Shown here piece by piece: positions 37,676 through 40,610 of a stretch of DNA of 64,000 nt. The DNA is from a virus. The stretch lies in IMG/VR virus record IMGVR_UViG_3300033146_001635, positions 30,584-94,583 of that record. One strand, given 5' to 3'. Both the position numbers and the translations under genes were made by a program. Each line of letters starts with the position of its first letter. Position 1 is the first letter of the stretch. The notes under the pieces are model-generated. The model was given only the letters and a program-made list of their open reading frames with translations, did no database searches and was not told the origin of the DNA.

Positions 37676-40610
37676 AAAATTGCACAATATTATATTGTGA
37701 AAATACAGGGTGTAACTTATTAATAATCATAAAAATTTGCACATTAATAAAATGTGACCACTCGGATAACAATTGCTATTTATAAAAATAAAATTACACA
37801 ATATTATATTGTGAAAGTAACGAGTGTAACTTATTAATAATCATAAAAATTTGCACATTAATAAAATGTGATCCGATGGACATAGACTATTATTTATAAA
37901 AATAATTATATTGTGTCGAATTGAATAATGTGGGTCCCCTATATATTTAATATTTTATATTTTTGAATTTGCACATCAATAAGATGTGATGTAGTAGATT
38001 CCCGTCTAACAAATATAAAAAAATTTGCATATCAAAAAGATGTGACATGCTTTCCTGGTAGATCCCACTATTGATAGTTATAAAAATAAAATTACACAAT
38101 ATAATATTGTGATTGAGAAATATGGTGACAATATAAAATAATATATTATAAAACTACACATTGTAATAATGTGTCCGAGTGCCGGAGTCGAAAATATTAT
38201 TAGATTTTGCACGTTAATAAAACGTGACTGCGGACTTTAACATCTATTTATAAAAATAAAATTACACAATATTATATTGTGAAAGAAAATAAGGAGCAAA
38301 ACTTATTAATAATCATAAAAATTTGCACATTAATAAAATGTGACCAATGGGGACAATGCAAAATAATATATTATTATAAACTACACATTGTAATAATGTG
38401 TCCGTGTGCCAGGATCGTAAATATTATTAGATTTTACACATTAATAAAATGTGACACAGTCGATATCAACACCTATTTATAAAAATAAAATTACACAATA
38501 TTATATTGTGAAAAAAAATAAGGAGCAAAACTTATTAATAATCATAAAAATTTGCACATCAATTAGCTGTGACATCCCTTCGCTTTCAATCCTTCATAAA
38601 CAATTAATTAATATATTAATAAAAAATAAAATTGCACAATATTATATTGTGAGAGGACAGAATGTAACTTATTAATAATCATAAAAATTTGCACATTATT
38701 AAAATGTAACATTCGTTCCACCTATACGATCTTTCATAAACACTCAATTAATATTAATAAAAATAAAATTACACAATATTATATTGTGGAAAGTAGGAAA
38801 TGTAATTTATTAATAATCATAAAAATTTGCACATCAATTAGATGTGACACACCTCCTCGACTTTTACCAACTTCATACATAACAATATATCTAAATTATC
38901 TATTAAATATTTAAATTTGCACATTAATAAAATGTGACCGTTGATGGATGAATTTCATACATAACAATATATCTAAATTATCTATTAAATATTTAAATTT
39001 GCACATTAATAAAATGTGACCATCCTACTGGATGAATTTCATACATAACAATATATCTAAATTATCTATTAAATATTTAAATTTACACATTAATAAAATG
39101 TGACCCATATGTCGTGATTATACTAACTTCATACATAAAACAATATATCTAAGTTATTTATTAAATATTTAAATTTGCACATTAATAAAATGTGACCACG
39201 GTGGGGCAGATATCAACTTCATACATAAAACAATATATCTAAGTTATTTATTAAATATTTAAATTTGCACATTAATAAAATGTGGCCAGGGTTGAACAAA
39301 TATCAACTTCATACATAAAACAATATATTCAAGTTATCTTTTAAACATTTAAATTTGCACATTAATAAGATGTGACCTCGGTTGAGCAGATATCAACTTC
39401 ATACATAAAACAATATATTCAAGTTATCTTTTAAACATTTAAATTTGCACATTAATAAAATGTGACCACCGTGGGGCAGATATCAACTTCATACATAAAA
39501 CAATATAATCAAGTTATTTATTAAATATTTAAATTTGCACATTAATAAAATGTGACTCCCTTCCCCTTCTGGATCCTTCATATAATATCAATAAAAATAA
39601 AATTGTACAATATTTTATTATGACAATTTCTGACTAAAACATATTATTATATTTCATATTTTTAAATTTACACATTAATAAAATGTGGCCGGCCTTCTCT
39701 CTTATATATCTTGTTTATTTACAAAATTACAAATTATTTGCATATTAATAAAATGTGACTTGAGCGTGCGGTTGATAAATATTAAGATTTATAAATAATA
39801 AAATTACACAATATTATATTATGATAACCCCGATTAACCAATACATGTTATACAATTATATATAAATTAATACAATATTATCAAAATTTTAAAATTTGTA
39901 CATCAAAAAGATGTAACTTGGAAAAATAAGATTGTTTATTATTATTATATATTCAAAAATTTGTATATCAAAAAGATATAACGATGATTGTCATAACTAT
40001 ACATATTTAAATTTGCACATCAAAAAGATGTGACAAACTGGAACCTTGCAAAAAAATATGACAAGCTGGGATTTGAATTAATAAATATATTTAAAATTTG
40101 CACATCAAAAAGATGTGATTGGATGCTTACAACACATAAGTATACAATAAATTATTCTAAATACAGGTGGATGAGATTAATTTACTCACTTGTATTTAAA
40201 ATTTGTACATTAAAAAAATGTAACTTTAAAAAATTGTTTATTATTATATATTCAAAAATTTGTATATCAAAAAGATATAACGATGAAGGTCATAACTATA
40301 CATATTTAAAATTTGCACATCAAAAAGATATGACCCGAAAAAATTGCTTATTATTATATATTCAAAAATTTGTATATCAAAAAGATATAATGACGTGGAA
40401 GGAATACTAACATACATATTTAAAATTTACACATCAAAAAGATGTGGCTATACCGGAGTACACCATACATATTTAAAATTTACACATCAAAAAGATGTGA
40501 CATGTTTTATTCTCCTATCAAATATATAAAAATTTACACATCAAAAAGATGTGACATACTTGATTTCCCCTATCAAATATATAAAAATTTACACATCAAA
40601 AAGATATGGC
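37676..40610. repeat. Non-coding array of ~43 hairpin repeats (AAATTTG-CACATT-AATAA-AATGTG-AC and variants) with variable GC-rich segments
   Basis: Hairpins counted by hand from 37683 to 40592; periods mostly ~52-65 bp and 80-92 bp; compensatory stem changes. Confidence 0.92.

Follow-up and report, generated by a model that had tools for sequence, protein, structure and literature searches.

A 43-unit hairpin array in a jumbo-phage contig, a probable new variety of guide-like small-RNA array

In the CRISPR RNAs, or crRNAs, of Cas12a, the handle comes before the guide and an AAUUU flank stands before a short stem-loop. Viruses encode crRNA-like RNAs, named Cracr, which consist of a hairpin handle and a spacer with about 10 functional bases; some of them lie in arrays, and the RNAs from a single array are directed at variants of the same locus. 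Here we describe a tandem array of hairpin units in a 64-kb stretch of viral DNA, referred to below as the window (64,000 nucleotides, positions 30,584 to 94,583 of the IMG/VR record IMGVR_UViG_3300033146_001635; coordinates are those of the window unless another record is named). Judged from its sequence, a new variety of guide-like small-RNA array is the reading that suits it best.

Other tandem RNA genes have to be considered beside the Cracr RNAs. The Listeria LhrC1-5 and the streptococcal csRNAs are tandem paralogous sibling small RNAs with anti-Shine-Dalgarno seeds, and the known families have only a few copies, every one of which carries a promoter and a terminator of its own. In type III toxin-antitoxin systems, ToxI is made of tandem RNA repeats that are cut into units, namely identical 36-nt units that have no variable segment and adjoin the toxin gene, and phages expand such repeats by recombination, as in the pseudo-ToxI expansions. 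The TIGR arrays are mostly phage-borne and carry guides of 8-12 nt (PMC12045711; bioRxiv 10.64898/2026.09.09.750476); an alternative TIGR geometry has two alternating repeats of 8-12 nt, spacers of 9-12 nt and a 36-nt unit, an arrangement that is not found in the present array. Finally, VIPR arrays have a 5-nt period.

Anatomy and strand of the array

The window belongs to a viral contig of 94.6 kb (27% G+C, 26% complete according to CheckV). This contig is a piece of the genome of an AT-rich jumbo myovirus that has a multisubunit RNA polymerase of its own. It encodes a tail sheath, a baseplate and a terminase, together with RNA polymerase subunits of the split beta and beta-prime-like kind, which characterise the jumbo phages that rely on their own enzymes for transcription.

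All 43 units of the array have the same orientation, and the array occupies the only long stretch of the contig that is free of open reading frames (ORFs) (Table 1). A covariance model (R1) built from 41 of the units returned 43 plus-strand matches, every one of them in the array, and zero elsewhere in the 94.6 kb; the E value per block II unit was about 1e-9. The modules of a unit follow one another in a set order: a conserved AAAUUU(G/A) flank, a 17-nt hairpin, the dinucleotide AC, a G+C-rich unstructured segment of about 11-16 nt and an A+U-rich linker. In block I, two or three hairpin types alternate in steps of about 57 nt, and in block III two types alternate at 53-57 nt.

The hairpin exists in at least seven versions (CACATT/AATGTG, CACATC/GATGTG, CACGTT/AACGTG, TACATC/GATGTA, TACATT/AATGTA, TATATC/GATATA, and, with 7 bp, CACAATA/TATTGTG and CACATTG/TAATGTG). 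Changes on both sides are found at five of the seven pairs, and paired cells reach 87% in the hairpin versus 77.5% in shuffles, a signal that collapses when the partner is slid along. What is conserved in the hairpin is pairing, not sequence.

The segment that follows has a composition of its own. The first position after the hairpin is A in 85% of the units and the second is C in 88%. From +3 to +13 the G+C content is mostly 50-65%, and the genome level (27%) is reached by +18. Segments with 50-60% G+C in a genome with 27% G+C argue against neutral drift. We did not detect any self-folding of the segments in excess of shuffles, and no complementarity between neighbouring segments was found.

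Which strand is read? The array is probably read from the plus strand. Indeed, the plus-strand genes at 30558-37629 lead into it with no terminator between. The contig contains a 14-nt late-promoter-like motif, [AG]GAACA-W6-T[AG], of which 11 minus-strand copies are located before late genes, and which is similar to the late consensus AACA-N6-T(A/G) of the Bacillus phage AR9 (PMC5312081). The sole plus-strand copy in the window, at 37341, lies 320 nt upstream of the first hairpin. This copy is a candidate start of the array transcript, which is only suggestive, as about 0.8 copies per strand are expected by chance and this one may itself be due to chance. Two further points in favour of the plus strand are that the array stops at a strong two-way terminator, which is also the end of the minus-strand operon, and that in five hairpins G-U pairs form on the plus strand only. 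Both terminator modules listed in Table 1 are preceded by CAATAAATTATT(C/T)TAAATACAGG, and the presence of the CAATAAATTATT box before both of them indicates that the array end itself was duplicated.

Table 1. Positions in the window of the array, its block II units, and the signals and genes associated with it.
Feature	Position	Strand	Remark
Whole array, 43 hairpin units	37674..40610	+	fuzzy motif search, hairpin finder, covariance model
Block II, nine units with common linker box TTCATACAT	38821..39575	+	
Five hairpins 90 bp apart: 39178-39194, 39268-39284, 39358-39374, 39448-39464, 39538-39554	within 39178..39554	+	
Variable segment of unit 39178, ACCACGGTGGGGC	39195..39207	+	one central base unlike segment 39465-39477
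Variable segment of unit 39268, GCCAGGGTTGAAC	39285..39297	+	
Variable segment of unit 39358, ACCTCGGTTGAGC	39375..39387	+	linker variant in common with unit 39268
Variable segment of unit 39448, ACCACCGTGGGGC	39465..39477	+	
Variable segment TTGAGAAATATGGTGACA	38112..38129	+	18/18 antisense match to groEL of related phage G002
Late-promoter-like motif AGAACATAATAATG	37341..37354	+	inside last small gene before array
Internal terminator module	40163..40200	.	near-identical to the terminal one, read from sequence
Strong two-way terminator, up to 20 pairs	40635..40681	.	closes the array and the converging minus-strand operon
Four tightly packed genes leading into array	35916..37629	+	no terminator between; putative link to the array

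Divergence among the 90-bp units of block II

Block II is a young part of the 43-unit array. Its hairpins start at 38830, 38920, 39002, 39086, 39178, 39268, 39358, 39448 and 39538, with spacings of 90, 82, 84 and 92 bp for the earlier units (38830, 38920, 39002, 39086). The first-pass annotation had reported that the last five hairpins follow each other at an exact 90-bp period, and their coordinates were verified; the letters that it quoted for the four 13-nt variable segments are also correct (Table 1). These five hairpins have a 6-bp stem, CACATT/AATGTG, and a 5-nt loop, AATAA. Over 38865-39556, Tandem Repeats Finder detected repeats with periods of 90, 180 and 270 bp (scores 496-957). Segments 39195-39207 and 39465-39477 can pair as a perfect 9-bp duplex, because both are near-palindromes.

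How are the differences distributed along the unit? When the four complete 90-bp units are compared, the segment varies at 8 of its 15 columns versus 7 of 75 elsewhere (Fisher p = 3e-4), in a small sample of four units and about 15 events. The varying segment columns are 26, 29, 30, 31, 34, 36, 37 and 40, the segment being taken here as the 15 nt after the stem. The closest pair, 39268/39358, shows the same contrast, with differences at 5 of 15 positions in the segment versus 1 of 75 elsewhere (p = 4e-4). The excess survives a split by base composition, the check that the first-pass annotation had named as able to overturn its reading: G/C sites vary at 4 of 9 positions versus 1 of 12, and A/T sites at 4 of 6 versus 6 of 63 (p = 0.003). 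Over block II, the mean pairwise identity is 0.91 for the constant parts and 0.56 for the variable parts.

The linker variants and the segments yield one and the same tree, ((39178,39448),(39268,39358)), and this agreement indicates that the 90-bp units are true paralogues and not independent insertions. The growth by duplication that had been proposed from the letters alone is thus upheld by the linker variants held in common, the exact 90-bp period and the duplicated terminator module. The accompanying proposal, that change concentrates on the segment after the hairpin, applies to block II and also array-wide: for the 24 units whose nearest paralogue is at least 85% identical in handle plus tail, the core matches at 6.7 of 11 positions (range 2-10). 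We also considered minus-strand mini-ORFs (MYEV...) and rejected them, as they are confined to block II, lack a ribosome-binding site and have no excess of synonymous changes.

Comparison with described guide and repeat RNAs

The CRISPR geometry, in which a direct repeat of constant length (about 23-50 nt) alternates with unique spacers of uniform length, is not found in this array, where the spacings range from 52 to 118 bp and both the constant part (40-75 nt) and the variable part (11-24 nt) are unequal in length between units. The Rfam CRISPR repeat families gave no match, even at E of 10 or less. The first-pass annotation had set the growth of the array apart from CRISPR spacer acquisition, a distinction that we retain: the segments are related to each other and unequal in length (13-24 nt), which does not suit an insertion of uniform spacers. 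Nevertheless, the type V crRNA plan, and especially that of the viral Cracr RNAs, appears to be the closest working analogy. Here as there, tandem units lie on one strand with a small stem-loop and its A/U flank before an unstructured variable segment, and, as for Cracr and Racr, the array is phage-borne without nearby cas genes. The Cracr analogy would also make ready sense of the kinship among the four segments of block II. Differences from these systems are found in the handle, whose sequence varies here by compensatory changes, in the origin of the units, which come from duplication and mutation and not from spacer insertion, and in their number, 43 here versus the 2-3 reported for Cracr arrays. 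Viral Cracr and Racr RNAs are recognised by a repeat-like part that is almost the same as a CRISPR repeat of the host and by a spacer-like part that matches a cas or toxin promoter.

The likeness to TIGR arrays lies in the phage-borne location and the short putative guides, in the alternating repeat types of blocks I and III, in the UG that stands before most hairpins and the AC, often ACC, that stands after them, in the CUU that follows many segments, and in the terminator that closes the array. However, the period is 52-118 nt here versus 36 nt, and the units of the present array have long A+U linkers. Moreover, stem-loop TIGR RNAs carry two spacers inside the stem, whereas the segment of this array lies outside a small closed hairpin. 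As to the TIGR-type box C (CCA) and box D (UG) flanks, the likeness is ambiguous at best: AC(C) is present after the hairpin and no UG is found directly after the segment. Long-range stems of the TIGR style between neighbouring hairpin halves were ruled out by covariation.

The array resembles the sibling small-RNA families in being made of tandem paralogues, and several of its segments are C/U-rich or complementary to a Shine-Dalgarno sequence plus AUG. It differs from them in that its 43 units are apparently on one transcript and in that its segments show no enrichment for start regions in the contig. Unlike the ToxI repeats, its units have variable segments, and no endoribonuclease toxin was found among the neighbouring genes.

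The array is unique within the collections searched. Rfam and tRNA scans returned no match, and comparison of the array with a phage collection gave no DNA match. Exact and degenerate patterns of the hairpin found single chance matches only in IMG/VR, in the JGI metagenomes and in 185,579 species genomes, and no repeat matching the hairpin was found in these species-representative genomes. Relatives of the contig were found through a structural protein and the tail sheath, and include a complete 312-kb genome with terminal repeats.

A putative guide array and its alternatives

We lean, with somewhat less than even confidence, towards the reading that the array is a plus-strand precursor of RNAs that each join a hairpin handle to a short guide, and that it grows by tandem duplication. 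The array would be transcribed as one precursor, from the upstream operon or from the 37341 site, up to the terminators, and this precursor would be cut in the linkers. The hairpin would be the handle for a partner protein, and the adjacent segment, the putative guide, would pair with a nucleic-acid target. New guides would arise when a unit is duplicated and its segment is then altered by ordinary mutation, with neither spacer capture nor a dedicated mutator, and sets of related guides would follow variants of one target. A more ambitious form of this proposal, which we regard as somewhat unlikely, makes the array the RNA half of an undescribed jumbo-phage RNA-guided system, with guides of 11-16 nt, an effector encoded elsewhere or by a neighbouring gene, a germ-line repertoire, and targets in hosts or rival phages.

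In a comparison of the segments with 1.8 Mb of sequence, both strands of five related records and of the remainder of the contig, the best-match lengths followed the shuffled distribution with one exception, the segment TTGAGAAATATGGTGACA. Its match is antisense to the codons for GYVSPYFST in the groEL gene of G002, a related phage. In all of IMG/VR this 18-mer has two occurrences, the one in G002 groEL and one intergenic chance site in an unrelated contig. If the RNA-guided reading is true, the groEL match would be a first hint of rival-phage targeting. G002 (IMGVR_UViG_3300033146_000850) encodes a full-length GroEL at its positions 47652-49274, and no groEL gene was found in the present contig or in the four other related records. 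The other 40 segments match at chance level. In units 38708, 40499 and 40553, the segment reads as a neat antisense copy of a Shine-Dalgarno sequence with its spacer and AUG. In the sister segments 40483-40520 and 40537-40575 this complementarity includes an 8-9-nt spacer, and pairing of the former with the start region of a 262-residue gene (3582-4370) amounts to -19.4 kcal/mol, which is non-significant after correction for 41 segments.

Several results weigh against a guide array. Shuffled segments find matches in the rest of the contig that are as good as those of the real ones, and against its 89 predicted translation start regions the p-values are uniform, without enrichment. TTGAGAAATATGGTGACA also makes a 16/17 near-match to the sense strand of another relative; this second match must be chance, and we treat the groEL match as a lead for that reason, with a chance probability of roughly 0.01-0.05. 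No partner was recognised: the contig, which represents 26% of the genome, has no Nop, Cas12f/TnpB or Cas6 domain, PF01798 (Nop) gave nothing at E of 10 or less in its six-frame translation while control genomes respond, and the defence and NCBI family libraries returned no partner match in the contig. No comparable array was found in the relatives, the complete 312-kb genome included, which have a tRNA cluster and coding repeats only, the contig of the closest large relative ending just before the homologous site. The internal terminator at 40163-40200 would separate the last eight units from a single transcript. The strand evidence is also divided: G-U wobbles give an ambiguous test, as they are confined to the plus strand in five hairpins and to the minus strand in three, each hairpin has a T-rich tail on the minus strand, and one-mismatch copies of the early-type motif TTATATATATT are found on that strand in the linkers of blocks II and III.

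These minus-strand signals, together with several tails that a scan flagged as terminator-like and near-consensus sigma-70-type hexamers on the minus strand of block III, would be accounted for if the units were small-RNA genes of that strand, with a weak early-type promoter in the linker, the segment as 5' seed, and the hairpin followed by CAAAUUU as terminator. We find this very doubtful, as the TTATATATATT-like motif is missing from block I and, in the youngest block II units, falls on the sole linker columns that vary, 69-71, and is therefore not conserved; the sigma-70-like matches number 80 versus 75.7 expected from shuffles, and the hairpins would make poor terminators because their stems are A+U-rich and the T run lies 4 nt beyond. 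The order of the modules and their flank, which recall Cas12a crRNAs, and the G+C-rich window of about 11 nt, which recalls the hairpin handle and roughly 10 matching bases of Cracr units, could point to a phage-borne CRISPR-type array (Cracr or Racr) that borrows a type V-like Cas protein of the host, with the hairpin as 5' handle, and silences host defence genes with guides kept short, which would bind but not cut. Such an array is unlikely, since the hairpin occurs in no array among the species genomes, the JGI metagenome contigs and IMG/VR, it matches no Rfam CRISPR repeat, the unit lengths are irregular, no cas gene is present in the contig, and a single Cas protein would hardly tolerate varying handles. 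The array could also act as DNA, with no function for an RNA: its units would be tandem sites, or extruded hairpins, to which a phage protein binds, for instance in replication, in packaging or in organising the nucleoid, or else it would be a selfish expanding satellite, with an unconstrained segment. Nearly all stems are indeed perfect Watson-Crick helices on both strands, with the wobble evidence split, the array lies at the meeting point of two convergent operons, the analysis turned up no target, partner or transcript, and a symmetric dimer site would likewise give paired changes in both halves. We nevertheless consider this quite unlikely: an unconstrained spacer is expected to be A+T-rich, while the segment keeps 50-60% G+C over 11 nt and a fixed AC start, the seven or more stem sequences would require as many binding specificities, and the single orientation and flanking terminators suit a transcription unit.

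A separate issue is why the segments of a putative guide array differ more than the rest of the unit. The diversifying selection suggested by the first-pass annotation is one of two explanations for this excess, the other being homogenisation or conservation of the constant parts, and the same pattern is expected if recombination or purifying selection keeps the constant parts alike and leaves the segment free to change. In the recombinational version, handles and linkers would stay uniform through unequal crossing-over and gene conversion, and sequence differences would stop conversion within the segments. It is possible, even if we incline against it, and it is favoured by the higher-order periods of 180 and 270 bp, by linker variants common to non-adjacent units, by the duplicated terminator module, and by cores that are from 2/11 to 10/11 identical between flanks more than 85% identical. 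However, it explains the contrast in rate and not why the segments stay G+C-rich and unstructured; moreover, it is compatible with the guide reading, and bears on the evolutionary inference only. The focused divergence alone would also fit a dedicated mutator such as a diversity-generating retroelement, in keeping with the targeted mutagenesis that had been suggested at first. To this we give practically no credence: the contig has no reverse transcriptase (no RVT_1 domain was found in it) and no pair of template and variable repeats, the substitutions include transitions as well as transversions and show no preference for adenine, and the segments differ in length.

If the segments are guides, the array would be the largest known virus-borne guide set without cas or tas genes, with a repertoire that evolves like a gene family, through duplication and divergence rather than acquisition. 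Array-encoded RNA-guided systems would then extend beyond CRISPR, TIGR and VIPR, and a very short handle (about 26 nt) with a short guide would be available for study. If they are not, the array would still be an unusually clear example, in a phage genome, of concerted evolution that spares a variable core.

Neighbouring genes and other observations

The four genes that lead into the array include those for a 105-residue zinc-ribbon protein and for a 197-residue protein with a C-terminal FCS-like zinc finger. When the neighbouring small genes were compared with Pfam, PHROGs, NCBIfam and PADLOC, just the zinc ribbon and a Pnk-like kinase were matched, and no homolog of the genes at 35333-37629 was found in the five related records. 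The 197-residue protein (36719-37312) belongs to a large uncharacterised family that has 560 cluster representatives and stands outside Pfam and PHROGs. Its core, LPDG...NASDLLEEF, is conserved, and a zinc knuckle, CxxCG...FCN, lies at its C terminus; the likeness of this knuckle to FCS fingers is weak (E = 8e-4). Its AlphaFold model (predicted local distance difference test score 79) comprises a small beta domain, helices and the C-terminal zinc knuckle, with no fold match in the PDB. A 161-residue upstream protein has 57 homologs in other large contigs, and no array was present at the one homologous locus inspected. The distribution of the 161- and 197-residue families greatly exceeds that of the array, and hence neither of them is a specific partner.

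The sole minus-strand gene (34565-34984) within the plus-strand accessory operon carries a terminator of its own at 34478-34506 and encodes a 139-residue P-loop protein with likeness to the polynucleotide kinase (Pnkp) kinase domain. In the complete 312-kb relative (G005, IMGVR_UViG_3300032046_000001), which is without a hairpin array, tRNA genes, at least six in number (His, Lys, Asp, Leu, Trp and Ile), are clustered within the longest ORF-free stretch, at 248000-249300 of that record. Elsewhere in the window, a tandem repeat of 27/54 bp (5.9 and 3.0 copies) spans 14513-14671, within a minus-strand ORF at 14084-14956.

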